Shown: positions 303 to 50,880 of the stretch, one piece after another
Numbering within the stretch: position 1 is the first letter of the stretch
Layout: the number at the start of each line of letters is the position of its first letter
IMG/VR virus record: IMGVR_UViG_3300044984_001938
Source: a virus
Taxonomy: Duplodnaviria; Heunggongvirae; Uroviricota; Caudoviricetes
Direction: 5' to 3' (one strand)
DNA: 64,000 nucleotides
Notes under the pieces: generated by a model
The model's input: the letters and a program-made list of their open reading frames with translations, nothing else
Told to the model about the DNA's origin: nothing
The model's database searches: none
Made by a program: the position numbers and the translations under genes

Positions 303-1403
303 TTATGCAAACACTACACCGTTTTGACCGACACAATACCACTTGCTATTAATGTACTGTAATGTACAGCCGTCGCCAATGTCGTTAAATGTAATTGTTC
401 CTGTGCCTGATGTTTTCCATCCTGCATTGGTAACTGTGATAACCATATCACCACCGTCTGCAACCATCATAAATGTTTTGATTTGCCCTGTACTTCCGGC
501 TGCTAGTGTAGCTGTACTTCCTACTATAGTAGTAAAATAAGTAGCAGTAACTGATAGACTAGCAGCACCACCGTTGACTAAATTATCACTGCTACTTAAT
601 AATAGTTGACCAGTAACTGAGACATTTGCCGGCAACTCAACACTAATAGTACCAACTGTTGTTATTGGGCTGTTTGATACCACTAAGGAACTACTAGACA
701 CCCCAACACTAATTACAGTACCGCTGGCTGTCGTAGTAGATATAGTTACGTTCCCGTTGCTACCACTCAAGTTAATACCTGTACCTGCACTTAATCGTGT
801 AACACCCGTATTAAGTATAGTAATATTACCCGCTGTGGTTATAGGACTACCGGATAATTGTATACCAACACCTGAAGTGATCATTCCTACACTAGTAACA
901 GTGCCCACTGATGCAGCATTGGCAATAGCAGTGACTCTACCATATTGATCAACTGTCATTGCAGGATATGTATATGATCCTGCAGTTGCTCCGGAATTAG
1001 CTAAGTCAATACTTATTGTGCCGGCGCTAACGATGGGGCTATTAGAAACAACTAATCTTGCACTTGATACCGGAAGTAATCCTACACTAGTGACTGTTCC
1101 TCCACTTCCGTTGCCTCCACCTGATGAACTTATTGTGATGTTTCCGGTAGTCCCGGACAATGTAACACCAGTTCCAGCAGTTAAACTGGTTACCCCGATG
1201 TTTGTTATAGTTATCGTATTTGTATTTGCATCTGCACTAGTAAGTATTCCGTTACCACCAATGAATGTATTGTATGGACTAGCACATGCAAATAATGTAT
1301 TGAAATTAGTTACTGTTTTGGTAAACGCGGTGTATAGAGAATCGCTATTAGCCGATTCATTGGGTAACCCTATACCTATAGCTTGTATTCCTGAAATTGC
1401 CAT
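303..1403 (-). CDS. tail-fiber-like repeat protein (Gly/Ser/Thr-rich, internal ~95-aa repeats)
   Basis: 366 aa. Repeated units such as VTSVG..LVVSNSPI..GTIS recur at least three times. Composition is typical of beta-structured phage fibre or receptor-binding proteins. The C-terminal part is distinct. Confidence 0.45.
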   Translation of the reverse strand: MAISGIQAIGIGLPNESANSDSLYTAFTKTVTNFNTLFACASPYNTFIGGNGILTSADANTNTITITNIGVTSLTAGTGVTLSGTTGNITISSSGGGNGSGGTVTSVGLLPVSSARLVVSNSPIVSAGTISIDLANSGATAGSYTYPAMTVDQYGRVTAIANAASVGTVTSVGMITSGVGIQLSGSPITTAGNITILNTGVTRLSAGTGINLSGSNGNVTISTTTASGTVISVGVSSSSLVVSNSPITTVGTISVELPANVSVTGQLLLSSSDNLVNGGAASLSVTATYFTTIVGSTATLAAGSTGQIKTFMMVADGGDMVITVTNAGWKTSGTGTITFNDIGDGCTLQYINSKWYCVGQNGVVFA

Positions 1404-1448
1404 GATTTAATCCTTATTATGTATTTATCAATAGGGATCAAATCAGCC

Positions 1449-1775
1449 TTACCCTGGACTAAAGCTACTCCCGCATCCACATGTGGTTACCGCAGCAGGA
1501 TTTTTAATCACAAATTGACTACCGGATAAATCATCTTTGTAGTCAATAGTTGATCCAGAAACATATTGCATAGACATTGCATCTACTAATACACTGGAAG
1601 TACTGAATGGGATTTCAAAATCATCTTCGTTCATAACTTCATCTAGGCTGAATCCATAACTCATTCCCGAACAGCCACCTCCCTGTACAAACATGCGTAG
1701 TCGCATTGCAGGGTTGTTTTCTTCTGCTAAAATGTCTGTTATCTTTGTTTGTGCTGCTTCTGTTACTATTAACAT
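1449..1775 (-). CDS. Fe-S cluster insertion protein, IscA/HesB (A-type carrier) family
   Basis: 108 aa. The internal Cys and the C-terminal CGCGSSFS motif match the HesB/IscA signature (C-x-n-C-G-C-G-x-S-F). Confidence 0.8.
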   Translation of the reverse strand: MLIVTEAAQTKITDILAEENNPAMRLRMFVQGGGCSGMSYGFSLDEVMNEDDFEIPFSTSSVLVDAMSMQYVSGSTIDYKDDLSGSQFVIKNPAAVTTCGCGSSFSPG

Positions 1776-1826
1776 TTTTATTCCTTAATACATGCATATT
1801 TATTCAATATCGTGTGTGGTGCTATT

Positions 1827-3656
1827 TTAAGTAAAATAGGGGTCTACAATGACTAGTGTACCATCTTTTCGTTGCATGACATTCTCAGTATGTAAGTCCC
1901 ACCTTAATCCACTTTCAAGACCAAGCCGATATAGTCTACTCATTGTTTGATACAATATTCCATATTGTTTATTAATCAATGGATCTGCTAATTTTTCAGT
2001 AACTGATTGAGGCATATTAGCCATACTAGGTTCAAGTTCCCAAGTCTCTGGTTTCTTCATCCTATTAACGACAGTATTCCAAGGTGCTCCGCCCTTGGCT
2101 TCGTCACTGAGCAACCACACCATTGCCTCTTCAAAACTATTATTCGGTATGGACTGTAGTCTCTCCATTGCAATTTGTCTATAGGGAACACCATTGAGTT
2201 TAAATACAGTATGATGTTCTCCACCAATAGCTATGAATTTTGGCAAGTTAGGTAACTCCGGATGATCTTTACAGAAGTTGTAAAATGCCAAGAATCCCCG
2301 TTCAGCATCTTGTGCTGGTCCGGGAACTGCTCTAGATGGCATTAAAATTTTAACCACTGACCCTTCATCCTTTGACCAAACAGTTGCATCTTGACCAGAA
2401 CCTAACATGGTATATTTAAGTTGCTTCAATCTATCAAAAATCTGCAGGCTATTGTCAGTTTGAGTTTCATATTCATTTAGTGTTTCCTCGTTGGCGTCTT
2501 GTTCTAATTCTGCTTCGTCAACCGGACTCTTTGTTGCCCAAAAAGTTTTCCCCAATGCAGTTTGTTTGCTGCTCGGTAAAATATCATTTCCCAATTCTTT
2601 AGCAAATTTATACATAGCAGTAGCTATCCCACGCCTTCTATGTTTGTTATCAACATGCAAATCAAGAGCCTCGATATGATCGTCTTTAATTTCAAAATTA
2701 ACCCAACTCACTTGGTTCTTTCCAACAAATGTTTTTATAGTAAATTGTTCACTGGGTTCATTGAATTTTTGATGCAGAAGAAATCTCCCGGGTGTGGCTA
2801 CCATTGTATATTTGCCAAAAGTTTTTACTTTTTCAAACCCACGCTTGAAAATATCTGGGTTAACTTTTTCAACGACCGTTTCGTCATTATCACTTTGCTC
2901 TAAATCTGCTAAATCAACATAATTGATAGGCACCCCCTTAATTGCAGCAGCTAACGCACGATGATTACCATCAATAATTCTGTTATCTGCCACTACAATA
3001 ACTTTACTTGCTAGTGCTGGATCATTAGTATATGATTGTACAATTGCTTGTTGGTCATCATCCAACATATCAGTTATTTCATCAATATGTTCTACCCGAT
3101 ATTGACCAAGCAATGTAATCATTACTTTATGTCTTTGTAATGTTTGAATAGTTAATGGTTTATCAAACTCATGCGGAGATACATAGTCCCAAAATTGGTC
3201 ATCACGATCTGGATAGTTACCTCCGTATAGTTGAGCTAGAGTAGTAGAGTTAGTCCCATCTTCTTTCATTAGATGCTGTGCATCACCTGACTTCTCCCAT
3301 GCTGCCCACATTGCCTTCCCGTCAGGCGATTGCTCTCTACTGGGACGAACATCATTGCCTAACATTTTGGCGTATGCGTACATTGTACTAGCAACACCAA
3401 ACTTTCTATACTTTTCAGCTACCCATGTGTTCACGCTTTCCAAATGACCGTCACCGCTATCTTGATTTATCTTAAACAAAGCATGAGCAATGCGAGTATA
3501 TCTATTAAAAACATTTACTCGTAACAAATTTCCACCATAGTCGCTTTCGCCAGCCTCTGCCGTGTAAGTAAAATTGCCGATTTCTTGAGTATCTGTAAAT
3601 CTTAGATCACGGATATCTGGATTAATTTCCTCGTTTATGAATTCTTTTGCTCTCAT
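1827..3656 (-). CDS. CTS-like-tagged multidomain protein: GNAT-like, ParB/Srx-like nuclease and protein-kinase-like C-terminal domains
   Basis: The N-terminus MRAKEFINEE resembles the T4 capsid-targeting sequence. VIVVADNRIIDGNHRALAAA is a ParB N-terminal-like motif. HRRRGIATAMYKFAKELGND and TMYAYAKMLGND are GNAT-like acetyl-CoA-binding motifs. The C-terminus has a Gly-rich loop (GSGQDATVWSKD) and DLHTENVM resembling the kinase catalytic loop. Confidence 0.6.
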   Translation of the reverse strand: MRAKEFINEEINPDIRDLRFTDTQEIGNFTYTAEAGESDYGGNLLRVNVFNRYTRIAHALFKINQDSGDGHLESVNTWVAEKYRKFGVASTMYAYAKMLGNDVRPSREQSPDGKAMWAAWEKSGDAQHLMKEDGTNSTTLAQLYGGNYPDRDDQFWDYVSPHEFDKPLTIQTLQRHKVMITLLGQYRVEHIDEITDMLDDDQQAIVQSYTNDPALASKVIVVADNRIIDGNHRALAAAIKGVPINYVDLADLEQSDNDETVVEKVNPDIFKRGFEKVKTFGKYTMVATPGRFLLHQKFNEPSEQFTIKTFVGKNQVSWVNFEIKDDHIEALDLHVDNKHRRRGIATAMYKFAKELGNDILPSSKQTALGKTFWATKSPVDEAELEQDANEETLNEYETQTDNSLQIFDRLKQLKYTMLGSGQDATVWSKDEGSVVKILMPSRAVPGPAQDAERGFLAFYNFCKDHPELPNLPKFIAIGGEHHTVFKLNGVPYRQIAMERLQSIPNNSFEEAMVWLLSDEAKGGAPWNTVVNRMKKPETWELEPSMANMPQSVTEKLADPLINKQYGILYQTMSRLYRLGLESGLRWDLHTENVMQRKDGTLVIVDPYFT

Positions 3657-4345
3657 TAGTTGGCTCTTTCCGGATCATACATCGGGTGATCTTGATTATA
3701 TTGCTGTCTTACTCTCACAGGAACATTGTATTGAGTTTTTTGATAACCTAGTTCTTGTTTAACTTCTGTTCTTGGGTCACGCAATATAGCATCCCATGTT
3801 GCTTTCATTTTGGGATCCTTAAACCAATTATTCTGCATCAATTTATCATTGACCGATACATCATAATGCTGATCCGGATCATCACCAGGTTTGTAGCTAT
3901 AGCGATACATGGGATGCTCACCAGGCGGGGTTGGCTTTATGGTGCGCTTTTTAGGCAACCATATTTGAATCTTTTTCACATATTTTCTAAATGGTTTCAA
4001 TCCACCTTTGATCAATGTTTCAAATCTATCTGTGTCTAGGGAATCGTCTCGGCGTTGAAATTCGTCTCTGGCATCTTCGGGTGGTTCACCTTTGAACCAA
4101 TCAGTGCCGGGCATTCTTTTGCGTCCTATGTCTCTACGCAACAAATCTTGGTCTAATGTGAATATTACACCACCGCTATCAAAGTTTTTCAAGTACCCAA
4201 GTGCATAGTTATAATTGCGGGTAGTGCTGACATCCTTACCTAATCCCATTTTATCATTATGCCACATTTGTAGCATACTAGGTATGCTAGTAGCATGATA
4301 TAAATCGGCTGCTTGCAATTCGTTTAGAAATTCTTTTGCTCTCAT
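3656..4345 (-). CDS. CTS-like-tagged hypothetical protein (putative head-internal protein)
   Basis: The N-terminus MRAKEFLNELQ belongs to the same family as the neighbouring genes. The ATG overlaps the stop of the upstream gene (ATGA). Confidence 0.5.
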   Translation of the reverse strand: MRAKEFLNELQAADLYHATSIPSMLQMWHNDKMGLGKDVSTTRNYNYALGYLKNFDSGGVIFTLDQDLLRRDIGRKRMPGTDWFKGEPPEDARDEFQRRDDSLDTDRFETLIKGGLKPFRKYVKKIQIWLPKKRTIKPTPPGEHPMYRYSYKPGDDPDQHYDVSVNDKLMQNNWFKDPKMKATWDAILRDPRTEVKQELGYQKTQYNVPVRVRQQYNQDHPMYDPERAN

Positions 4346-5208
4346 TACATTACAAAAATTTGCCCCACTGAACTTGATAATACATCATCAAACATATATT
4401 TCATATCGTTTGCTAGTGTTTGGGTAGCCTCTGCCCTTTCGCCTTCATCACGATATTCAGGTTTGATGTTCATATACTTACTAGAATTGCCCCAGTTCTT
4501 ACGGCCATAACCCAAGTTGCCTGGTAATGGGTTGAATGAAACAGTACCAGTACCTAAATACTGTGCAAAAAGTTCGTATAGAAATTCATATGGTCGTTTG
4601 ATTTCACCACCGCGACTACTACGCTGTGTGCCAATTGCATTAAATAGTGCGTTGTATTCAGGTGTTAGGTCCCATTTAATAGCAGTGCTATAGGTAGTTG
4701 CCCCGCGATATACTTTACCGTAATATTCTTCTAACATAGTATTGACTGCTGTAAAGAAATGTTTTTCTGCTTCTGCCCATGTACTCCATTGACTTTTTCC
4801 ACGAGTACCGGCTTGAATAGCATGACCAAATCTATGTGCCATGATCCATGGTGTCATCATCACTTTACTATCACCACTGTTACCAACAAAAACCACAGTG
4901 ATTGCATCTTCGCTGCCATCTATAATCGGTTGTGCTTGTTCGCCAAACATCTGTTGAAGTTGTTGTGCATTGACAGGGCCAGTCTCCTTGTACTTACCTG
5001 TGCCAGGTATGTTACTAAAGAACAATCTAAAATCGTATGGAGTTCTCTCAAAGAACTTTGCTGTCTTTAATTGATTAGTAGGATGCGGCACTAATCGCTT
5101 GTCAACACCTCTGAATGGTCCGGGTTTATCAAAGTCGCCCATTGGGGTGAATTGTTTAAGTGCCATCTCATCGACGGTGTTCTCTGATATAAAGTCATTT
5201 GCTCTCAT
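4345..5208 (-). CDS. CTS-like-tagged hypothetical protein
   Basis: The N-terminus MRANDFISEN fits the family. A HRFGH motif raises the possibility of a metal-binding or hydrolase site. Function is unknown. Confidence 0.5.
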   Translation of the reverse strand: MRANDFISENTVDEMALKQFTPMGDFDKPGPFRGVDKRLVPHPTNQLKTAKFFERTPYDFRLFFSNIPGTGKYKETGPVNAQQLQQMFGEQAQPIIDGSEDAITVVFVGNSGDSKVMMTPWIMAHRFGHAIQAGTRGKSQWSTWAEAEKHFFTAVNTMLEEYYGKVYRGATTYSTAIKWDLTPEYNALFNAIGTQRSSRGGEIKRPYEFLYELFAQYLGTGTVSFNPLPGNLGYGRKNWGNSSKYMNIKPEYRDEGERAEATQTLANDMKYMFDDVLSSSVGQIFVM

Positions 5209-5690
5209 TATAGTCCAATCTTGCCTGGATACATTGGGCCAGTTTCAATTTGTTCACCACCATCAAAGTACTTTATCTCAATGGGCATGGTCTGCCAGTT
5301 TAATCTATCAGCAGCCATGATACGATGATTACCTTCGTTGACCCAGGCTTCGCCATTGTAAGCTACCATGATGTATGGTAAGTATTCATTATCTGTACTA
5401 GACGACATGGGTGGCAATTTACCAGTCTTTTTCATGTAATCCATTAACCATGCCAAGTCATCTTTACGCACCTTGAGTTGTTCATTACGCAACCCCGGCA
5501 ATGAAGCCAAAACCTTTACACTTACACGAGGTGGTGTTCCTTTAACATAAGCGGTAGTACTACCAAAATGCGGTGCACCAAAACTGTCACGACCTTTGCG
5601 TTGAGCATATTCTATTTTACCTTGTAACCAATCCTCATTGGGAACATCTATCCTCAGGGTACCTTCAGTGATGAATTCATTTGATCTCAT
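5208..5690 (-). CDS. CTS-like-tagged ParB/Srx-like domain protein
   Basis: The N-terminus is MRSNEFITEG. VNEGNHRIMAADRL is a ParB N-terminal-like (DGNHR-type) motif. Confidence 0.5.
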   Translation of the reverse strand: MRSNEFITEGTLRIDVPNEDWLQGKIEYAQRKGRDSFGAPHFGSTTAYVKGTPPRVSVKVLASLPGLRNEQLKVRKDDLAWLMDYMKKTGKLPPMSSSTDNEYLPYIMVAYNGEAWVNEGNHRIMAADRLNWQTMPIEIKYFDGGEQIETGPMYPGKIGL

Positions 5691-5694
5691 TATA

Positions 5695-6252
5695 CTATTT
5701 ATAGGGTTTGGCCCACCTGGTATTGATCACATTCCAGTTTATGATCTTCCACTGTTCGGTTAAATACTTTTTCTTGTCTGAACCGTAGTCCAATATCCAG
5801 GCGTGTTCCCATCGGTCAACTAATAACAATATATCATCGCGTACTTCATGGTTCTTGATCGTTTTAATCTTACCATCAGTCGCTAAGTATACCCAACCCG
5901 ATCCTTCTAACTTCATAAATTCAGTTTCAAATTCAGACTTCATGTTATCATAATCACCATAGTGCTTATTGATGAATCCAAACATAGGGCCGTTGGGTTT
6001 GTTATTGTTTCTTACTTCACGGAATTGAGGGAATAAGGTGTTATGCAAAAAAGCACCTGCATAGTTGAAATCTCTGTCACCCTCTTTTTTGTTGTAGCGT
6101 TCAGCGTAACCGTGGGCTAGTTTCCCGTAGTGTAGATCCAATGTATCTTTGGATAGAACGGGACTAACTTCAGCCGGAGTGAAGTTTAGTGGTATAATTT
6201 CTATGTCTTGCGGTTTACTCTTTTCCTCAAGTAACTGGATTAAATGTCGCAT
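5695..6252 (-). CDS. Fe/Mn superoxide dismutase-like protein
   Basis: All four canonical metal-ligand positions are recognisable: LHYGKLAH and FLHNTLF (His), and DRWEHAWILDY (Asp and His), ending in NWNVINTRW. This is SOD_Fe_N plus SOD_Fe_C-like architecture at about 185 aa. Confidence 0.6.
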   Translation of the reverse strand: MRHLIQLLEEKSKPQDIEIIPLNFTPAEVSPVLSKDTLDLHYGKLAHGYAERYNKKEGDRDFNYAGAFLHNTLFPQFREVRNNNKPNGPMFGFINKHYGDYDNMKSEFETEFMKLEGSGWVYLATDGKIKTIKNHEVRDDILLLVDRWEHAWILDYGSDKKKYLTEQWKIINWNVINTRWAKPYK

Positions 6253-6276: not shown

Positions 6277-6489
6277 TTAAAGACGCCTAATTATTCTTCC
6301 CTTAGACAAATCATAAGGTGAAAATTCTACTGAAACTGTATCACCTAGTAATATTTTAATATCGTTCTTACGCATACGACCACTGATGTAACCAGTAACT
6401 ACATTACTTAGATTCATCTGTACTTTGAACATGGCATTGGGTAATACATCAATTACCTTGCCATCCATCTTAATTCCTTCTTCTTTCAT
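6277..6489 (-). CDS. infA: translation initiation factor IF-1
   Basis: 70 aa. The sequence is near-colinear with bacterial IF-1 (DGKVIDVLPNAMFKV...ISGRMRKN.IKILLGD.V.VE.SPYDLSKGRI). Confidence 0.9.
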   Translation of the reverse strand: MKEEGIKMDGKVIDVLPNAMFKVQMNLSNVVTGYISGRMRKNDIKILLGDTVSVEFSPYDLSKGRIIRRL

Positions 6490-8250: not shown

Positions 8251-9081
8251 ATGAAACAATTACTCACACTCCTAATATTGCTGTTCTCGGCACTTGTCTA
8301 TGCACAATCTCCAACTTCAACAGTACCACTTTCCCCGGATATAGCCGCAATTAAGAAGAAAAATGTCTTGGTTGTAGCAATGACCAAAAAAGATAACCCT
8401 CCCTTCTTTAGTGGGGATGAAAAAAACATACGCGGGCTAGATGTTGAAATTGCTCAACGCATAGGGGTATTACTTGGGGTGCCTGTGGAATTTCGCAGAG
8501 ATGCAGAAAGTTTTGCCGATGTAGTTGAACAAGTTAGGTCTGGTGCCGCAGATGTTGCAGTAAGTAAACTGTCAATCACAGGTCCAAGACTACTTACAGT
8601 TCGCTTTAGTGATCCGTACATCAAACTCAAGCAAGCAATGATTATTAATCGCTTATGGCTAAGTCAACACGGTCAAGGCCGAGAAGTGTATGAAGTGATT
8701 AGAACATTTAACGGCAAGATATCTTTCATCCGTAACAGTAGTTATGATACATTTGCCCGTGCAAATTTCCCCAAAGCAATATATACTCCCGAAGATAGTT
8801 GGGATACGATTGTCAATAATGTAACTAGCGGTGCAATTGCTGCTGGATATAGAGATGAGTTTGAAATTAAGAAAATCTCATTTGAAAAGCCTAATGCAGC
8901 AATTACTACAAAAACTGTAACTATTTCTGACTCTATTGATAATATTGCAGTTGCAGTAAATATTAACTCACCCCAACTACTAAGCATAGTAAACTATGTA
9001 ATTAAAAATGATTACAGTAATATTGACACTAAAAAGTTAATGGACCGATACAAGGCTGAAAAGTCTCCTGTAAAGAAATAA
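8251..9081 (+). CDS. secreted periplasmic solute-binding protein (SBP family 3, amino-acid-binding-like)
   Basis: The signal peptide is MKQLLTLLILLFSALVYAQSP. Size (276 aa) and the VAMTKKDNPPFF..GLDVEIAQ..GV pattern are typical of polar-amino-acid-binding proteins. Confidence 0.5.
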   Translation: MKQLLTLLILLFSALVYAQSPTSTVPLSPDIAAIKKKNVLVVAMTKKDNPPFFSGDEKNIRGLDVEIAQRIGVLLGVPVEFRRDAESFADVVEQVRSGAADVAVSKLSITGPRLLTVRFSDPYIKLKQAMIINRLWLSQHGQGREVYEVIRTFNGKISFIRNSSYDTFARANFPKAIYTPEDSWDTIVNNVTSGAIAAGYRDEFEIKKISFEKPNAAITTKTVTISDSIDNIAVAVNINSPQLLSIVNYVIKNDYSNIDTKKLMDRYKAEKSPVKK

Positions 9082-9093
9082 TTAGGAAATAAA

Positions 9094-10380
9094 ATGAAAT
9101 TTAATTTAAAAAACTTCTTATCTAGTCCGTGGACTATTTTAGGATCAATCATAATCGGAGTGTTGGCAGGAGTACATGCACCTGCATTAAGTATGAACTT
9201 TGAAAGTGTTGGTGGAATTTACATTAGCTTGCTTAAAGTTGTTGTAGTACCTTTCTTGCTTGCAACAATTTTAGTTGGGGTTGTTAGTCTTTTACAGAAA
9301 GAAGGCAGCGCCGCAATGATACGAAAGATTATCATAGGCTTCATTGCAAGTATGTTCATTGCCGCAGTGATAGGAGTTGGTACTGTTGCTGTTACCGGCA
9401 GTGAAATGACACCTGCAAAACAATCTCAACTTGGTGCAATTGTCAACGATAAAGATTCTGGTAGTGATCTAAACATCACTCTAACAGAACCCATGCCCAA
9501 GGCTCCACATATTGATCCAATACTGATGGCACAAAAGTTTATTCCGGAAAACATCTTTAACACCCTGGCTGCAGGTGAAAGTTTAAAGATTGTTATCTTT
9601 TGTTTGATATTTGGTATTGCACTGGGCAATATTAAAAGTTCTGGACAAGAAATGCTAGTAGATGTATTGAAAAGTGTACAACAGGCCAGCATCAGTATCT
9701 TTAAGTTTTTAAACTACTTTCTACCGTTTGCTTTATTAGCAATGATCAGCAGTCAAGTTGGTAAAGTTGGAGTTGGCATATTCTTGACCATGGTTGAGTT
9801 TATCATGCAACAAGCAATTGGTGGATTCTTAATTATTGCACTAGGTACTGTTGTCATCTGGAAGCGTTCAGGTCTTAGCTTGATGACTGTTATTCGTGAA
9901 ACCAAAGAAACACTAATTGTTGCGGTTAGCTCACGCAGTAGTTTAGCATGTATCCCATACGCACAAGAAGCATTGCATAAGTTGAAATTTGACAAAACAG
10001 GTGTTGAGTTAACTGTTCCGCTGAGTTTTACAGTTAATCGTATTGGTAGTATTGCGTATTATGCAATTGCCACAGTGTTTATTGCCAACATTTATGGGGC
10101 TCCAATGGGAGTAACCGGGTTGTTAGTTGTATTGTTTGGTAGTATTCTTGCTGGGCTAGCCAGTGCAGGTACAACAGGTATTCTTACAGTTGCTACCGTA
10201 GCAGTTGTTTGTGATTTATTAAAACTTCCAAGTGAAGCAGTATTGGTATTGTTGATTGCAGTTGATCCATTAATGGACATGATTCGTACAGCAAGCCATG
10301 TACACGGTAATGTGGCTGTGACCGCTTTCGTGTGTGATAAAGAGCCAGAATATGGACAAGATCAAAGAGTTACTGCTTAG
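9094..10380 (+). CDS. dicarboxylate/amino acid:cation symporter (DAACS, GltP/GltT-like)
   Basis: 428 aa polytopic membrane protein. The glycine-rich hydrophobic segments and the DPLMDMIRTASHVHGNVAV region are typical of sodium:dicarboxylate symporters. Confidence 0.65.
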   Translation: MKFNLKNFLSSPWTILGSIIIGVLAGVHAPALSMNFESVGGIYISLLKVVVVPFLLATILVGVVSLLQKEGSAAMIRKIIIGFIASMFIAAVIGVGTVAVTGSEMTPAKQSQLGAIVNDKDSGSDLNITLTEPMPKAPHIDPILMAQKFIPENIFNTLAAGESLKIVIFCLIFGIALGNIKSSGQEMLVDVLKSVQQASISIFKFLNYFLPFALLAMISSQVGKVGVGIFLTMVEFIMQQAIGGFLIIALGTVVIWKRSGLSLMTVIRETKETLIVAVSSRSSLACIPYAQEALHKLKFDKTGVELTVPLSFTVNRIGSIAYYAIATVFIANIYGAPMGVTGLLVVLFGSILAGLASAGTTGILTVATVAVVCDLLKLPSEAVLVLLIAVDPLMDMIRTASHVHGNVAVTAFVCDKEPEYGQDQRVTA

Positions 10381-10957
10381 TTTATTAAACTACATAGGTG
10401 AAAGTCCATTTCGCTTATTCACGGTTATTCTATTATGTGTACTGGGATTTGGCGGATGGATCATATACTCAGAAAAAGATGCGTTTATTGCTAGTTATCG
10501 GGCTCAACAGGCCATGCCAAAGATGAATGGCCGATATGAGGATGCACATAACTTTTTGCTGAAAAACACCACTGCTGAAATGGTGGCTATATTAGAAGTA
10601 AATACACTTTCAAATACAAGAAAAATAGCATTTTTATCTACCCGCGGCGCCGGTAGAGATAAAAATCACGATGGTGTTAATGTTGGGTTGTTCTCAAAAA
10701 ATTATGATAACAACACCGATGTGATCAGTTTAATGTCGGGTAAAATTCCCTGTAGTTCATATCTCAAACCGCAAAGTTTGATTGGATTTGTATATCGTGA
10801 TTATGGGGTGAATTTCATGTGCAGAATCAGTGTACCGGCTGAACCCGGTGTTTTCATTGGACAAATAAGTGTGGGTTGGAAAGAACCCCCAGACAACATA
10901 GAAGAAATTCAAACCGCTATGATGATTGCTTCTTCAATACTGTATAGTAAGAAATGA
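10352..10957 (+). CDS. hypothetical membrane-anchored protein
   Basis: The ORF 10334-10957 has one N-terminal TM helix (FRLFTVILLCVLGFGGWIIY) followed by a soluble domain. The start is ambiguous. It overlaps the symporter end. Confidence 0.35.
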   Translation: MDKIKELLLSLLNYIGESPFRLFTVILLCVLGFGGWIIYSEKDAFIASYRAQQAMPKMNGRYEDAHNFLLKNTTAEMVAILEVNTLSNTRKIAFLSTRGAGRDKNHDGVNVGLFSKNYDNNTDVISLMSGKIPCSSYLKPQSLIGFVYRDYGVNFMCRISVPAEPGVFIGQISVGWKEPPDNIEEIQTAMMIASSILYSKK

Positions 10958-11012
10958 TACTTCCTTCTATTATCAGTGTTGTGTTACTAGTGATACTAAT
11001 ATTGGTGTTAAT

Positions 11013-11726
11013 ATGAGCAAGCGGCTTGGTGTATTGGGTGGTATGGGGCCTGCTGCTTCAGCCGAATTTATGGTAAGACTGATTGCTCAAACTCCGGCAA
11101 AGCGTGACCAAGACCATATCCCTGCAATTCTTTGGAGCGACACCACAGTTCCAGACCGTAGCACTAGTATGCGAAATGGTGATGACAAACCGTTACCCTA
11201 CCTGTTAGCGGGAATACAAGGATTAATATCAACCGGTTGTAATATAATTGTTATACCATGCAATACTGCACATTTTTGGTTTAACGAAATGGAAAAACAA
11301 GCATCGTGGCATGCTAAAATTGCTCATATTGTAGATAGTGTTGCAGATGCATTAAGAGACATAAAAGTTACTAATGCTAAAATAGGCGTCATGGGTACAC
11401 AAGCAACTATTGAGTTGGGTATGTATCAGTACCGTCTAAATAAGTTAGGTTGGGATTGTATTGCACCGACTAAAGAAGAAATGGATACACTAGTACAGCC
11501 TGCCATTGATTTAATTAAAGCCAATCAGATTGCAGAAGCATATCCAATGTTAATGACTGTAATTCATAGTCTTATTGACAAAGGAGCAAAAGCAGTGGTA
11601 TTAGGCTGCACTGAAATACCACTGTCTATTAAAGAAGATACAGTACAGGATACACCAATAATTAACAGCATTGACAGTTTAGTAAAGTCTGTTATTAAAG
11701 AATTCAAAAAGGGGAAACTAACATGA
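11013..11726 (+). CDS. aspartate/glutamate racemase family protein
   Basis: MSKRLGVLGGMGPAASAEF is the racemase N-terminal motif, and the second catalytic Cys sits in VVLGCTEIPL. The internal Met was chosen as the start because the track ORF at 10926 overlaps the upstream gene. Confidence 0.75.
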   Translation: MSKRLGVLGGMGPAASAEFMVRLIAQTPAKRDQDHIPAILWSDTTVPDRSTSMRNGDDKPLPYLLAGIQGLISTGCNIIVIPCNTAHFWFNEMEKQASWHAKIAHIVDSVADALRDIKVTNAKIGVMGTQATIELGMYQYRLNKLGWDCIAPTKEEMDTLVQPAIDLIKANQIAEAYPMLMTVIHSLIDKGAKAVVLGCTEIPLSIKEDTVQDTPIINSIDSLVKSVIKEFKKGKLT

Positions 11727-12049
11727 ACTTATCATCGGTTATATTTGTAATCGCAGTATTTGCCTCAGGTGGTGTTTTCGCACAAGCAAAAAGTCCCGAA
11801 GAACTTGTGAATGTGAAAATAGCATGTTATGATACTGATATACTAATTAAAACATTACTTGATACACATAAAGAGTATCCCATACTTATGGGGATAACCG
11901 ACGATAACGCAAATTCCACTATGGCAGTTTGGATAAACTTTAGAACTAAAACATGGACTATAGTTGCTACTAAGGAAAAGGTAAGCTGTGTTATTGTATC
12001 AGGTAAGGGAATAGAATTAGTTCCATATAAAAAGGAACCAATGATTTGA
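11723..12049 (+). CDS. small secreted hypothetical protein
   Basis: 108 aa with signal peptide MNLSSVIFVIAVFASGGVFAQA. ATGA overlap with the racemase gene. Confidence 0.4.
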   Translation: MNLSSVIFVIAVFASGGVFAQAKSPEELVNVKIACYDTDILIKTLLDTHKEYPILMGITDDNANSTMAVWINFRTKTWTIVATKEKVSCVIVSGKGIELVPYKKEPMI

Positions 12050-12783
12050 AGAAAACTGTACTATTTTTGCTATTAGCCGCATCCCAATGTGTAACTTATG
12101 CACAATCCAATTTAACGGCTCAAGCATGGTTGATTGCAGATGCTAATGGTGCAATACTTGAGGGTGTGCATACCACTGAGGTTAGGGCTATTGCTAGTAT
12201 AACTAAATTAATGACAAGTATGGTTGTATTAGATAGTGGGCAATCATTAACTGAAACAATTCCCAAGAAACTTTACAATAGAAAATTCACCAGACAAGAA
12301 TTATTCAATTTAGCAATTGTTAAATCAGACAACAATGCTGCTAGAATGTTATGCGAATACTATCCTGGTGGAGTTAAAAAATGTGTTGAAGCAATGAATA
12401 CAAAAGCTAGTTCATTAGCTATGAATAATAGCCGGTTTACTGACCCAACTGGGTTGTTTAACACCAATGTAAGTACCGCAGAAGATTTAGTTAAATTAGT
12501 AATGGCTGCAAAGAATTACCCAATCATCACTAATGCAAGTAATACATCAATCATTAAATGGAAAATCAATAAGAAGAAATCTGCGGTCTTTCACAATACT
12601 AACAGGCTAGTGGGCAAAGGTGTTGATTTTATAGTAAGTAAAACAGGATGGATAACTGCCAGTGGCGGATGTATTGTTATGATGTTACAGGGTGAGCAGG
12701 GTATTAGGACTGTAATCCTATTAGGTAGCAAGAATACACAGACACGCATCCCAGAAGCGTATATGTTATCTAAGCTACATTAA
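12046..12783 (+). CDS. D-alanyl-D-alanine carboxypeptidase / serine beta-lactamase-fold protein (peptidase S11-like)
   Basis: It has a signal peptide plus the three penicillin-binding-protein motifs in order: SITKLMT (SxxK), SDNNAAR (SxN) and KTGWIT (KTG). Confidence 0.75.
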   Translation: MKKTVLFLLLAASQCVTYAQSNLTAQAWLIADANGAILEGVHTTEVRAIASITKLMTSMVVLDSGQSLTETIPKKLYNRKFTRQELFNLAIVKSDNNAARMLCEYYPGGVKKCVEAMNTKASSLAMNNSRFTDPTGLFNTNVSTAEDLVKLVMAAKNYPIITNASNTSIIKWKINKKKSAVFHNTNRLVGKGVDFIVSKTGWITASGGCIVMMLQGEQGIRTVILLGSKNTQTRIPEAYMLSKLH

Positions 12784-47141: not shown

Positions 47142-48332
47142 ATGAGATTTAATGAAATTATATCCGAAGCAGGTAGTCCTGCCCAACAAGCAGCAATTGC
47201 AATTGCCATGAAAAAAGCTGGAAAGAAGCCAAAGCAAGGTGTGGCGGAAGGCAACCTAGAAGAAATTGACCGCAGAGGATTCTTAAGAGGCTTGGGTGCG
47301 GCCACTGTGGCAGGTGCGACTAATAATGCAATGGCTGCTCTAGGGTCACCTACTGCTCCAAGGGCACAGGTTAAAGTGCCGCCTGTGCCACAGTTACCCG
47401 CACGAGACGGTGATCTAGGTAATGGCAATAGAGTAACAACAAACAAAGATGGTACTAGAACTTATTCTGGCGGGTTTGGTTCATTTACATACAATGCTCA
47501 GGGTAAGGCTATAACATATAGTAGTCCTAACTTTAATGGATCTGGCCAAACCATCGACTTAACTACTAATCAAATTACGCAAAATTACAATGCAGGACCA
47601 TTGAAGATTAAACAAACTACCGATGCTACCGGTAAGCAAGTAGCGGCTGATAAATCATATGATCTTGGTGCAGCAACTGTCAGACAGCAAACCGACGCAA
47701 CGGGGAAAAATACTAACACAGCTTATGTTCCAATGGATGATACAACTCATGTTGTAGATAAACCAACCCTTAGAAAAGCCTTTGCGAAATGGCTGCCGGA
47801 AGGCTCTGAGGCAAGTGATAATCTAGTATCCACACTGAATTCTTTCGGATATTACTCTGACAACAGTAGTGTTTATGCAAATGATGACGGTGATAAGATT
47901 GTTCGTCAAGGTTCTAATTGGAAACATCAAGATGGTCAACGTGGTACTGGTGCTGAAGAATTAGGTAATTTCCTCAGTTCACAAGAAGTTGATGAAGGCG
48001 AAACTTGGTCAAAGCATAACAACCCAAGAGCAGGTGGGATGAGTAAAAAGTCTGTTAGTAGCTATCGCCGCAGTCATCCTGGTAGCAAGATTCAAACAGC
48101 GGTAACAACTAAGCCAAGCAAACTTAAAAAAGGTAGCAAGGCAGCAAAGCGTAGAGCTAGCTTTTGTGCCAGAATGCGTGGAATGAAGAAACATCGTACT
48201 GGTGCAAAAACAGCAAGAGATCCAAATAGCAATATAAATAAAAGTTTGCGTAGATGGCATTGCGAAAGCATTGAAGAACTACATGAATTAGTAATGCTTG
48301 CTGAACAATTTATTAGGAATAACAAGAAATGA
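47142..48332 (+). CDS. CTS-like-tagged protein with Tat-like RRxFLR motif and basic C-terminus
   Basis: The N-terminus is MRFNEIISEA. An internal DRRGFLRGLGAATVAGATNNAMAA segment follows. The C-terminal region is Lys/Arg-rich. Confidence 0.5.
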   Translation: MRFNEIISEAGSPAQQAAIAIAMKKAGKKPKQGVAEGNLEEIDRRGFLRGLGAATVAGATNNAMAALGSPTAPRAQVKVPPVPQLPARDGDLGNGNRVTTNKDGTRTYSGGFGSFTYNAQGKAITYSSPNFNGSGQTIDLTTNQITQNYNAGPLKIKQTTDATGKQVAADKSYDLGAATVRQQTDATGKNTNTAYVPMDDTTHVVDKPTLRKAFAKWLPEGSEASDNLVSTLNSFGYYSDNSSVYANDDGDKIVRQGSNWKHQDGQRGTGAEELGNFLSSQEVDEGETWSKHNNPRAGGMSKKSVSSYRRSHPGSKIQTAVTTKPSKLKKGSKAAKRRASFCARMRGMKKHRTGAKTARDPNSNINKSLRRWHCESIEELHELVMLAEQFIRNNKK

Positions 48333-49984
48333 ACTTCAAAGAATTATTAGAAGGCGCAGAGCCAAAGTTGCCGGGCGCCCCAAAGGGTATCTCAATTATG
48401 ACACCTCAGCAATTTGTTGCTAGTGCTGGTGATATGCCAGATGAAGAAGTAGATGAAGGCAGATTTACACATGGTCCAGGTGGCGTTCCACTTGATCGCC
48501 AGGGTAATCCCAAGGTAGCAAAGCCAGCTATGCCTAAATTATCAAGAATGTCTGCACCAGAACCTAAATTAGATTTAGATAAGATTTGGTTTGATGTTAC
48601 TCAGATCATCAGCAACATTTTCCCAGATGGTGATCCAGCTGACTACTTGCCAAAGTATGCCCGCAAACATGGGATAACATATGATGATATTCGCGCAGCA
48701 GCTAAAAAGAATGGTTATGAAGATGAGTATGCTTACATTGATGATATGAAAACCGGTGACTATGGTTATGATGAGCAAAGTTTAGCGGAAGGTGAAGAAC
48801 ATCTAGCAAGAATTCGTAGTCTATCTGGACTAGATGAAGCAACTAAACTACCAGCACAAACTCGTGACTTAAAGGGTCAAGAGTTTCAAGATTACATGAA
48901 ACGAATCGTTGGTACTCCCGATGTAGATAAAGCAGGCAATGTTAAAGTAGATAAAAAGGGCAATGAAAAATATACAACTGGTAAAACTAAAGGTGACAAG
49001 TACAAGATGCCTTACATCCATCGTAGTAGTGTAGTTACATACTTAAGTCCAGATGGTAAAACATACGATGAAGATGCTGTTAAACAAACATTAGCAATTC
49101 GTCCCAAAGCATTACTTAAACAAAACGAAAAGATGAAGCACAGCAATGGTGAGTTTGAACAATTCTTTAATGTTGGGTTCGCGGCATTGGTAGGTATTGC
49201 ATTAGATGAACAAACAAATAATCTAATTGTTGTTAACACATGTCCAGGCGCCGGCTCTTGTAAAGTTGATTGTTTCGCCATGAAGGGCGGCAAGATTCAA
49301 TTTAAGGCTGCATGGCAAAGTGACGGCAGAATACTTACATATCTGTTGAATGATCCAGATGGTTTCTTTAATCAACTAAGCAATGAAATCTCTGCTGAAT
49401 CACAAGAGGGTGCTGCAGGCGATAAGAAATTCCCCAATGGATGGAAAGTAACGGTTCGTTGGCATGATGCCGGCGACTTCTTCAGTCCAGAATACTTGGA
49501 TATGGCATTAAAAATGGCTGCTAAACATCCTGATGTTAGATTCTATGCGTACACTAAGATGGCAGGAGCAGCATTAGCTAAGAAGCCAGATAACTTCATC
49601 ATCAATTGGAGTGAAGGTGCTAACACCGAGCAAGAGAAACAAGTAAAGGCTCAGGATCCTAAATTAGATAAGACAAAGAACAGTCGTATTGTTCCAGAGA
49701 AACTATTCTATGACTTATTGGCCAAGGATGAGAAGGGTAACTTGAAAAAGACGGATGACGGAGCATGGCAACCTGCTGATGACGCAGCACTTAAACAAAT
49801 GAAACAACGAATTGCTAACGAATACGGCATTAGTTCTTCAAGTATTTTAAGTTATAATGAATATATGTCTAAGAGAAATTCAATTCCAGCTGGAATGAAG
49901 TACAATGTTATCGTTGCACCGGGTGAAGGTGATGTTAGTGCGAATGATCCTGGTGTATTGAGTACCCTATTGTTAAGACATTAA
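48329..49984 (+). CDS. CTS-like-tagged hypothetical protein (551 aa)
   Basis: The N-terminus is MNFKELLEGA. ATGA overlap with the preceding gene. Confidence 0.5.
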   Translation: MNFKELLEGAEPKLPGAPKGISIMTPQQFVASAGDMPDEEVDEGRFTHGPGGVPLDRQGNPKVAKPAMPKLSRMSAPEPKLDLDKIWFDVTQIISNIFPDGDPADYLPKYARKHGITYDDIRAAAKKNGYEDEYAYIDDMKTGDYGYDEQSLAEGEEHLARIRSLSGLDEATKLPAQTRDLKGQEFQDYMKRIVGTPDVDKAGNVKVDKKGNEKYTTGKTKGDKYKMPYIHRSSVVTYLSPDGKTYDEDAVKQTLAIRPKALLKQNEKMKHSNGEFEQFFNVGFAALVGIALDEQTNNLIVVNTCPGAGSCKVDCFAMKGGKIQFKAAWQSDGRILTYLLNDPDGFFNQLSNEISAESQEGAAGDKKFPNGWKVTVRWHDAGDFFSPEYLDMALKMAAKHPDVRFYAYTKMAGAALAKKPDNFIINWSEGANTEQEKQVKAQDPKLDKTKNSRIVPEKLFYDLLAKDEKGNLKKTDDGAWQPADDAALKQMKQRIANEYGISSSSILSYNEYMSKRNSIPAGMKYNVIVAPGEGDVSANDPGVLSTLLLRH

Positions 49985-50880
49985 TGAGAGCAACTGAATT
50001 TATCGCAGAAGCAATACTAGATGAAGCAGCTACTGCTATTGTCTACCATTATGCCGGTGTATCTGCTGCTGCAAAAATTCTAACTACTGGAGTTTTTCAA
50101 TTAAGTAGTGTCACAGGTAACTCTAGTGAAGAACAATATGCACCGCCGGGATATCTTTACTTTCTAAGCACAACTCGCAGCAAAGTGGGAGACTATCACC
50201 GATATACTGGTAGCAGCGCCGCTATGTTTGTAATTGATGGGAACTGGTTAAATCGGCATTACAAAACAAAAGCAATTGATTATTGGGAAAGGTCTTGGCA
50301 ACATAGTAACGGTACTCGTACCAGTGAAAGCGAAGATAGAGTATTTTCAAAGACACCTGAAATTCCAATTAACGGAGTAATTGCTGTTCATGTTTTGCTC
50401 AAAGAACAGAGCGAAAATCGTAGCCCCGAAGTTAGAACAATTTTAATCACTGCCAAGAAGCAAGGTATATCAGCTTACTTATACACAGATGAGAAGGCAT
50501 GGCGTTTACAAGATACCCGCAAAGCAGTTACTCCCGGTGACGCTGCTAAATTGCTTAAAGGACAACAACCAAAAGGTTACACACCAAGTCGTCCGCCGAC
50601 AATGTACCTTGAACCGTGGGTAGAACTAATATATAAAAACAAAAAATCAGATTTAACTAGCCGTGCTGAAAAGTTGCGATATGAATTAGTCTACTATGGC
50701 AGTAGACGTCCAGATTCCGATAGTAATCTTGGTGTAGATATGAGCAATGCTCGTAAACCTAATTCTACTGATTATCCAACTGCTGTTAAATTAAATGATT
50801 TTATGCGTAAGAATAAGTTACCAGATACAGTAGCACTTAAAAATATGCTAGTTGATAAATGGGTTAAAATTAAATCTTAA
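49984..50880 (+). CDS. CTS-like-tagged hypothetical protein (298 aa)
   Basis: The N-terminus is MRATEFIAEA. TAATG overlap with the preceding gene. Confidence 0.5.
   Translation: MRATEFIAEAILDEAATAIVYHYAGVSAAAKILTTGVFQLSSVTGNSSEEQYAPPGYLYFLSTTRSKVGDYHRYTGSSAAMFVIDGNWLNRHYKTKAIDYWERSWQHSNGTRTSESEDRVFSKTPEIPINGVIAVHVLLKEQSENRSPEVRTILITAKKQGISAYLYTDEKAWRLQDTRKAVTPGDAAKLLKGQQPKGYTPSRPPTMYLEPWVELIYKNKKSDLTSRAEKLRYELVYYGSRRPDSDSNLGVDMSNARKPNSTDYPTAVKLNDFMRKNKLPDTVALKNMLVDKWVKIKS

Follow-up and report, generated by a model that had tools for sequence, protein, structure and literature searches.

The 64,000-nucleotide stretch analysed here, IMG/VR record IMGVR_UViG_3300044984_001938 (Caudoviricetes) and hereafter the window, encodes on its minus strand (1827..3656) a 609-residue protein in which a nine-residue N-terminal tag is followed by four modules, in the order GNAT1, ParB/sulfiredoxin (Srx), GNAT2 and protein kinase. 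Judging from sequence and from analogy with known systems, we put the probability that this protein is a polyvalent effector which a T4-related jumbo phage delivers from its capsid at about 60%. The proposal draws on a tag that resembles the capsid targeting sequence (CTS) of T4 and recurs on unrelated proteins, and on motifs resembling protease sites at the boundaries between the modules.

The open reading frame (ORF) begins with ATG and ends with a stop codon at 1827-1829. It is real and no chance ORF, because the identical 609-residue protein is encoded on 20 metagenome contigs, it has 258 homologues and the residues of its motifs are near-invariant. The homologues (E down to 1e-293) are all metagenomic, on contigs of up to 361 kb, and an IMG/VR contig holds a 98% identical copy together with the same upstream genes. 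At the DNA level nothing similar to the window exists in 50,697 records of cultured phages, and searches of cultured phages for near-identical sequences and for proteins found no relative of the gene, bar one GNAT stretch. The original prediction, made from the letters alone, had described a tagged fusion of ParB-like nuclease, GNAT-like and kinase-like domains; the ORF and all the motifs it quoted were confirmed at their residues, the catalytic residues are present and all three domain types are supported.

The tag, MRAKEFINE (residues 1-9; 3630..3656, minus strand), is similar to the T4 CTS, MKTYQEFIAE (PMC8442874), which is cut once by the prohead protease (PMC3012670); here the predicted cut falls after Glu9. 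Five ORFs in the window start M-R-[AS]-x-[ED]-F-[IL]-x-E and continue into unrelated cargo. Directly upstream of the 609-residue gene, and translationally coupled to it, lies a 229-residue ORF (MRAKEFLNE; 3656..4345, minus strand), preceded in turn by ORFs of 287 residues (MRANDFISE; 4345..5208, minus strand) and 160 residues (MRSNEFITE; 5208..5690, minus strand). These three are chained by TAATG overlaps, and the start of the 609-residue gene overlaps the stop of its upstream neighbour in the same form. Neither the 229- nor the 287-residue protein matched a Pfam or PHROG family, and the latter had no match in the cultured-phage protein search. The 160-residue protein appears to be a free-standing ParB-like protein bearing an EGNHR motif; its PHROG ParB-like matches are weak, and it can be aligned to the corresponding module of the 609-residue protein. 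The fifth ORF, of 298 residues (MRATEFIAE; 49984..50880, plus strand), is TAATG-coupled to an upstream 551-residue GP88/LysM protein, and its EFIAE is identical to the corresponding stretch of the T4 CTS. The five tags thus end in INE, LNE, ISE, ITE and IAE; T4 Alt is cut at ITE-6 and LTE-619 (PMC5694885).

The tag is not confined to the window. Of the Met-starting proteins among the query and its homologues, 109 of 119 begin M-R/K-x-x-x-F/I/L, and a 346-kb relative (L011) has 13 consecutive tagged ORFs about 1 kb upstream of its large terminase gene. A scan of IMG/VR with the tag-coding pattern gave at least 119 stretches with at least 176 tagged ORFs, which fall into at least 32 unrelated cargo clusters; the largest cluster among the matches listed consists of small proteins of about 126 residues. 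Among tags, the codons for the Phe, the Ile/Leu and the Glu differ synonymously, which places the selection on the peptide. The tag sequence was not found in the papers of the literature searched. Both the resemblance to the T4 CTS and the recurrence of one tag on many unrelated cargo proteins support the earlier reading of this N-terminus as a CTS.

Similar N-termini were seen elsewhere. In Alishewanella phage Slicko01 (L007, OQ508956.1), five adjacent ORFs at 380-3824 start with another version of the tag, MKIxxLYES-like, and the first of them matches ART-PolyVal in Pfam (E 2e-11), so isolated phages, too, possess tagged arrays of polyvalent-type domains. In T4-related jumbo-phage contigs (IMG/VR protease loci L138-L217, e.g. 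L148:4901, L153:4795 and L160:4807), the portal and protease genes flank an ORF of 65-82 residues whose product starts MRLNEFYNPE, MRAKDLLVEFY, MKLFEMF or MILRELF. It has a conserved ..TRK.KLTL..L motif, and its N-terminus resembles the effector tag. Since this is the position of the T4 prohead-core genes 67/68, the tag may copy a core-association signal. Directly after the tag, the 229- and 298-residue proteins share [LV]-Y-H-[AY]-[TA]-[SG]; the cultured-phage homologues of the 298-residue protein, in Vibrio phage D484 (L006:1486-2079), Slicko01 (L007:1492-3332) and Salicola phage SCTP-2 (L008:1495-2649), have VYHGTS, VYHST or VFHYTS, and the 229-residue protein has LYHATS. This Y-H motif is reminiscent of the His motif in H-Y-E ADP-ribosyltransferases; there was no matching Pfam model, and the sole support for a link between the 229- and 298-residue proteins is a weak BLAST match (E 0.009).

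In an observation that goes beyond the original prediction, motifs like the end of the tag also occur inside the 609-residue protein and its homologues, where the residues preceding the internal modules align with the tag. At GNAT junctions the N-terminal EFINE|EINPD has as counterparts HLMKE|EINPD, KKLDE|TINPD and ETVVE|KVNPD; at ParB junctions EFITE|SSQQTTL is matched by HLMKE|DGTNSTTL; and kinase modules are preceded by EPIDE|AE, ETLNE|YE and EELTE|YE. In this fixed register a hydrophobic-x-Glu motif stands in 27 of 29 distinct junction contexts for GNAT modules, 36 of 39 for ParB modules and 64 of 67 for kinase modules, against a background of 2.2% at each position of these proteins; as the contexts are related by descent, the counts do not stand for independent events. 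In the 609-residue protein the candidate sites are MKE132 (residues 130-132; 3261-3269, minus strand) at the end of GNAT1, VVE263 (residues 261-263) at the end of the ParB/Srx module, and LNE395, located with VDE381 in an acidic linker after GNAT2 (within 2472..2867, minus strand). The internal sites fall in the stretches of lowest confidence at the ends of the two structural models described below, at or next to segments with a predicted local distance difference test (pLDDT) score below 50. Of the five other matches to the pattern, at least IDE193, FEE510 and VTE554 lie within confident helices, and VAE81 and FNE300 in the unmodelled GNAT modules. One homologue retains a whole internal tag, MRASDFIAE. 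The hydrophobic-x-Glu motif has the form of a T4-type prohead protease site, and its occurrence before every module, in linkers predicted to be disordered, suggests a cleavable polyprotein. A polyprotein cut by the prohead protease is the simplest reading; relics of gene fusion are the alternative, and the two are compatible.

BLAST comparison of the homologues with the query delimits four independently shuffled modules (residues 1-133, 134-258, 259-383 and 384-609), corresponding in that order to GNAT1, the ParB-like module, GNAT2, which is a paralogue of GNAT1, and the kinase-like module. With hidden Markov models of the modules, 36 architectures were counted among 121 proteins; ParB-kinase (17) and GNAT-ParB-kinase (14) are the commonest, and the kinase is nearly always C-terminal. 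Relatives also carry fused Glyco_hydro_19, dCMP-type deaminase and DUF6934 domains. Four modules of three kinds in one phage polypeptide fit the definition of a polyvalent protein, the phage context being given by PolB, ligase and UvdE genes in the window and by a terminase gene in relatives. The combination of kinase, GNAT and ParB-like domains had been expected to be an unusual effector; it is present as described, but it is less unusual than supposed, since such domains have already been reported in multidomain polyvalent proteins proposed to be delivered together with the DNA (Iyer, Burroughs, Anand, de Souza, Aravind 2017, PMC5512222).

The kinase module (residues 396-609; 1830..2471, minus strand) comprises a G-loop, LGSGQDATVW (residues 418-427; 2376-2405, minus strand), the kinase Lys, K436, a catalytic loop, DLHTEN (residues 587-592), within DLHTENVM (residues 587-594; 1875-1898, minus strand), and the metal-binding D605 in VIVDP (residues 602-606; 1839-1853, minus strand). 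Its match to phrog_15752 has E 7e-7 and spans residues 24-228 of 231 in the module; all 25 kinase-family members (best 4e-14) and T7 gp0.7 itself (1.7e-46) match that family too. When the family profile was compared with T7 gp0.7, the two aligned at the G-loop/V-I-K and at FDMHSGNIM...ITDP versus WDLHTENVM...IVDP; hhalign gave a probability of 82%, for the N-lobe only. G419, G421, D423, M497, E498, D587, N592, D605 and P606 are invariant in 25 diverged kinase sequences, K436 and H589 are nearly so, and the spacing D-x4-N-x12-D is that of protein kinases. Structure prediction was needed because profile searches against the sequences of solved structures gave nothing significant for the kinase, ParB or GNAT modules. 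The AlphaFold model of the kinase (pLDDT 82.6) retrieved with Foldseek protein-kinase-like folds only (YtaA/CotS, 7.5e-5; PknB, 2e-4; APH(2''); VRK2), with probabilities of about 1 but low TM-scores of 0.3-0.38. Between hinge and catalytic loop there are additional helices, and the chain stops four residues past the metal-binding Asp, so the usual C-terminal kinase subdomain is absent. These profile matches, aligned motifs and the predicted fold support the module as a T7 gp0.7 homologue of Ser/Thr type with a protein-kinase-like fold, and thereby bear out the earlier kinase-like assignment of this C-terminus, for which structure prediction had been proposed as a check.

Membership of Pfam Kinase-PolyVal (PF18762) was considered and rejected: the module scored 22.1 bits against a gathering threshold of 27 and covered only positions 136-156 of the 160-position model. 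That model is matched by 16 of the 25 family members (best E 5e-5), and we regard the module as related without filing it there. An exhaustive profile search returned 2,845 representatives at E<=1e-3, 196 of them at E<=1e-30; among the matches listed, most either stand alone, at about 220 residues, or carry the domain C-terminally in a longer protein. Some members (P0273, P0377, P0329, P0275) are 1,100-1,500 residues long with an internal kinase. Two giant members start MDIKELHSF.. or MQIKELDSY.., followed by ..GDAV[KR]FH[ND]ELNP..., and these resemble a 303-residue protein of another locus (L009, 7028-7939); such giants may be polyvalent proteins from other lineages.

The ParB/Srx module (residues 133-263; 2868..3260, minus strand) contains DGNHRALAAA (residues 229-238), with DGNHR at 2958-2972 on the minus strand. 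Sequence matches are weak: the PHROG ParB-like match has E 0.038, the query module has no Pfam match (ParBc or ParBc_2), one homologue matches ParBc_2 at 8.6e-4, and the only hit of the PDB sequence profile is SbnI, with E 1.3. The structural model is confident (pLDDT 87.8), and ParB/Srx proteins recur among Foldseek matches that are not significant; there are hits to the ParB-family proteins KorB, Spo0J and PadC. In 23 sequences D229, G230, N231, H232 and R233 are invariant or nearly so, and A237 is likewise conserved, within the motif I-I-D-G-N-H-R-A-L-A-A-A, which corresponds to the Arg-containing phosphate-binding active-site pocket (GxxR / DGxHR) of the ParB/Srx superfamily. We accept an alpha+beta ParB/Srx fold. 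The motif and the fold of the earlier ParB-like assignment therewith stand, but its "nuclease" is a family label that we do not accept as established, because the fold includes CTPases, ATP-dependent kinases (SerK, SbnI), sulfinic-acid reductases and nickases (PMC5512222).

GNAT1 (residues 10-132; 3261..3629, minus strand) and GNAT2 (residues 264-395; 2472..2867, minus strand) are 32% identical and have in common an R-x-x-G-[IV]-A motif and the helix that follows it. The acetyl-CoA pyrophosphate-binding motif R/Q-x-x-G-x-G/A reads RKFGVA in GNAT1 (residues 84-89; 3390-3407, minus strand) and RRRGIA in GNAT2 (residues 340-345; 2622-2639, minus strand). The whole protein scores 32.2 bits on Pfam Acetyltransf_1 (PF00583), above the cut-off of 20.7, with the best stretch at residues 296-355 in GNAT2. 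Both predicted GNAT-like motifs are thus present, but only GNAT2 passes the Pfam cut-off. PDB profile matches of the GNAT module are weak, and two of the three are acetyltransferases. Both modules are short GNAT cores.

Taking into consideration the tag, the linkers and the modules, we infer packaging, cleavage, injection and enzyme activities as follows. MRAKEFINE would act like the T4 CTS and draw the protein into the scaffolding core of the prohead, where a gp21-type prohead protease would cut the tag off after Glu9. The same protease would probably also cleave the linkers at MKE132, VVE263 and LNE395 and so release separate enzymes inside the head. Ejected with the DNA, the freed enzymes would be at work ahead of all phage gene expression. 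Host proteins would be the substrates for phosphorylation by the kinase, as they are for T7 gp0.7, and host proteins or small molecules those for acetylation by the GNATs, and the ParB/Srx module would bind or hydrolyse nucleotide, or nick DNA. The net outcome would be host takeover or counter-defence.

The window belongs to a very large phage, with genes for a family-B DNA polymerase, an ATP-dependent ligase, a 5'-3' exonuclease, UvdE and ClpX. Its polymerase shows 43-48% identity to the counterparts in T4-related jumbo phages (Sinorhizobium Phosso, Vibrio 2.275.O, Agrobacterium Atu_ph07, Xanthomonas XaC1 and Klebsiella RaK2/K64-1), and the closest PolB sequences are from group-2.2 jumbo phages (Phosso, Vibrio 2.275.O, Atu_ph07 and RaK2/K64-1). 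Atu_ph07 is placed in jumbo-phage group 2.2, and groups 1 and 2 are reported to have a T4 gp20-type portal and a gp21-type prohead peptidase (Iyer et al. 2021, PMC7824862). The nearest cultured relatives (Vibrio 2.275.O, K64-1) have an S77 gp21-type protease. In the 346-kb relative, the terminase-adjacent genes were considered as portal or protease and rejected; they encode a virion protein, a cytidyltransferase-like protein and a gp32-like single-stranded DNA-binding protein. An exact-DNA search of IMG/VR gave no match. The T4 late-promoter motif TATAAATA was not enriched (4 matches against 7.7 expected), and no timing is deduced from it.

Several observations weigh against delivery in the capsid. 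Prohead protease, portal and capsid genes were not found among the window ORFs scanned, and none of the three lies within 10 kb of any effector locus examined. Nor was the protease found in 119 tag loci or 37 effector loci; the effector contigs are not among the best 120 matches of the protease search, and the best 80 protease-bearing IMG/VR contigs do not overlap the effector contigs. We therefore attribute a prohead protease to this phage from its relatives only. On Acetyltransf_1, GNAT1 alone reaches 14.7 bits, under the cut-off. The 609-residue gene shares its operon with superoxide dismutase, IF-1-like and IscA-like genes and does not sit among head genes. At the DNA level, ATG AGA GCx opens 15 of 15 tags examined (window starts at 3654-3656, 4343-4345, 5206-5208, 5688-5690 and 49984-49986, and the tags of the 346-kb relative), while AGA makes up 27% of Arg codons, and most tagged ORFs overlap the upstream stop as TAATG with no clear Shine-Dalgarno sequence before them. 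Given this conservation of the start and the coupling, the N-terminus may be conserved partly for translation or recombination.

The same facts could point to an ordinary intracellular enzyme, made after infection like T7 gp0.7 and never packaged, whose N-terminus serves gene expression, the A-rich start allowing coupling or re-initiation without a Shine-Dalgarno sequence; the codon bias, the TAATG overlaps, the superoxide dismutase, IF-1-like and IscA-like genes of the operon and the lack of head genes found nearby would all suit it. We nevertheless consider it unlikely, since residues 5-9 (E-F-I/L-x-E) are kept through synonymous codon changes, the hydrophobic-x-Glu register recurs at internal junctions that have no translation start, the tag almost matches the T4 CTS, which has been defined by experiment, and the untagged genes of the operon (superoxide dismutase, IscA) lack this N-terminus. 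The internal junctions bear equally on the suggestion that tag and junction motifs are mainly recombination joints, the internal ones being relic N-termini within an uncleaved four-domain polypeptide, packaged or not. The 36 architectures among 121 proteins, the alignment of junctions with N-terminal tags (HLMKE|EINPD with EFINE|EINPD), the intact internal MRASDFIAE and a similar cassette idea proposed for polyvalent proteins (PMC5512222) speak for such joints. Over 90% of the distinct junctions, however, have kept hydrophobic-x-Glu while MRA has been lost, which argues for selection on the motif rather than decay, and the sites lie in disordered linkers; as recombination is moreover compatible with cleavage and not exclusive of it, a purely recombinational origin strikes us as quite improbable. 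Very improbable, in our estimate, is that the enzymes act on the phage's own components in the head or during assembly, with the ParB/Srx module organising or nicking packaged DNA and the kinase and GNATs modifying internal or scaffold proteins. ParB-family proteins such as those matched here bind DNA and nucleotides, and the tagged array of the 346-kb relative stands beside a terminase gene; yet the homologous T7 kinase targets host proteins (PMC5512222), and the tagged cargo families are highly variable between related phages, which is the pattern of conflict effectors and not of conserved assembly factors.

As a capsid-delivered effector, the 609-residue protein would combine features of several known systems. 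Polyvalent proteins also hold several unrelated effector domains per polypeptide, in variable architectures; their repertoire likewise includes GNATs, ParB/Srx domains and a Ser/Thr kinase described as having lost its whole C-terminal subdomain, and their co-delivery with DNA has been proposed (PMC5512222). The present protein differs in a kinase nearer the T7 gp0.7 family than Kinase-PolyVal, in a short T4-type N-terminal tag and in protease-site-like linkers between all modules; and whereas the polyvalent kinase is known from prophages of Verrucomicrobia, Chlamydia and Bacteroidetes (PMC5512222), this one belongs to an uncultured T4-related jumbo lineage. T4's IPI, IPII and IPIII internal proteins and Alt use the CTS according to Mullaney and Black (1996; cited by PMC8442874, PMC3012670 and PMC5694885). 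Like these, the tagged proteins have an N-terminal tag of about ten residues ending in I/L-x-Glu on unrelated cargo predicted to be injected enzymes or anti-defence proteins. T4 cargo is single-function, whereas up to four enzyme modules are chained here with a site-like motif at each junction, and the tagged arrays reach 13 genes.

With T7 gp0.7 the kinase shares a homologous core (phrog_15752, phrog_2828), in which the G-loop, V-I-K, D-[LM]-H-x-x-N-[VI]-M and [IV]-x-D-P align, and it would be expected to phosphorylate host proteins at an early stage of infection. T7 gp0.7 is synthesised in the cell from an early gene and has a C-terminal host-shutoff domain. Here the host-transcription shutoff region is absent, as the protein ends at residue 609, four residues past D605 and just after D605-P606, and the kinase is fused to other enzymes behind a head-targeting-like tag. 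P1 DdrB and the Dar proteins are also large and multidomain with a ParB/Srx fold, and the P1 proteins are processed and incorporated into the head (PMC5512222); the present module has no sequence match to the DdrB-like ParB family, the phage is of another type, and a short CTS would take the place of the Dar route. What sets the protein apart is the combination of polyvalent modules with a T4-like tag and a T7-type kinase, together with site-like linkers at all boundaries and long tagged arrays in an abundant uncultured clade.

Should the tag function as it does in T4, the injected proteome of a whole uncultured giant-phage clade would be recognisable from sequence by a motif of nine residues, and dozens of cargo families to which no role has been assigned would become candidate anti-defence or host-takeover proteins. 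The motif at each module boundary offers a testable model in which polyvalent proteins are deployed as polyproteins cut in the head. The T7 gp0.7 kinase family is extended to about 2,800 diverged representatives, many of them N-terminally tagged and C-terminal in multidomain proteins, and the tag could serve engineered protein delivery by large phages. More speculatively, and less likely than not, the MRAxEFIxE tag and the hydrophobic-x-Glu linkers might constitute a modular delivery grammar of this large T4-related jumbo clade, in which any enzyme module could stand behind the tag or be chained to others by the linkers for packing into the prohead: a cocktail of separate enzymes cut by the protease would be injected, recombination at the tag DNA would generate its combinations, and the ParB/Srx module and the kinase, a frequent pair, would form a previously unrecognised two-part device for takeover or anti-defence.

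Some further features of the window were noted. The IscA-like Fe-S assembly gene (1449-1775, minus strand) and the Fe/Mn superoxide dismutase and IF-1-like genes (5695-6252 and 6277-6489, respectively, minus strand) are co-directional with the tagged effectors; in an unrelated T4-like jumbo contig an IscA-like gene lies a few kb downstream of the capsid gene (L015:17528-17845). The 298-residue tagged ORF is directly preceded (47142-49984, plus strand) by a 396-residue protein containing DUF6321 and then by the 551-residue GP88/LysM ORF, which overlaps it; a DUF6321 protein is also found inside the tagged array of the 346-kb relative (5447-6250). A block at 8251-12783 (plus strand) runs on the opposite strand, and its GC skew is reversed. 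Its genes, host-like ones for cell wall and amino acids inside a phage, code for a family-3 solute-binding protein, a sodium:dicarboxylate symporter, an Asp/Glu racemase and a D-Ala-D-Ala carboxypeptidase; the block is no assembly chimera, because the same arrangement occurs on an independent contig (L004). At 303-1403 (minus strand) lies a 366-residue Gly/Ser/Thr-rich protein with repeats of the form ..VTSL(T/S)AGTG(V/I)(T/N)LSG..GN(I/V)TIS.., probably a fibre, in a region that is variable, since JGI contigs with the same 609-residue gene (L001-L003) have other genes there.

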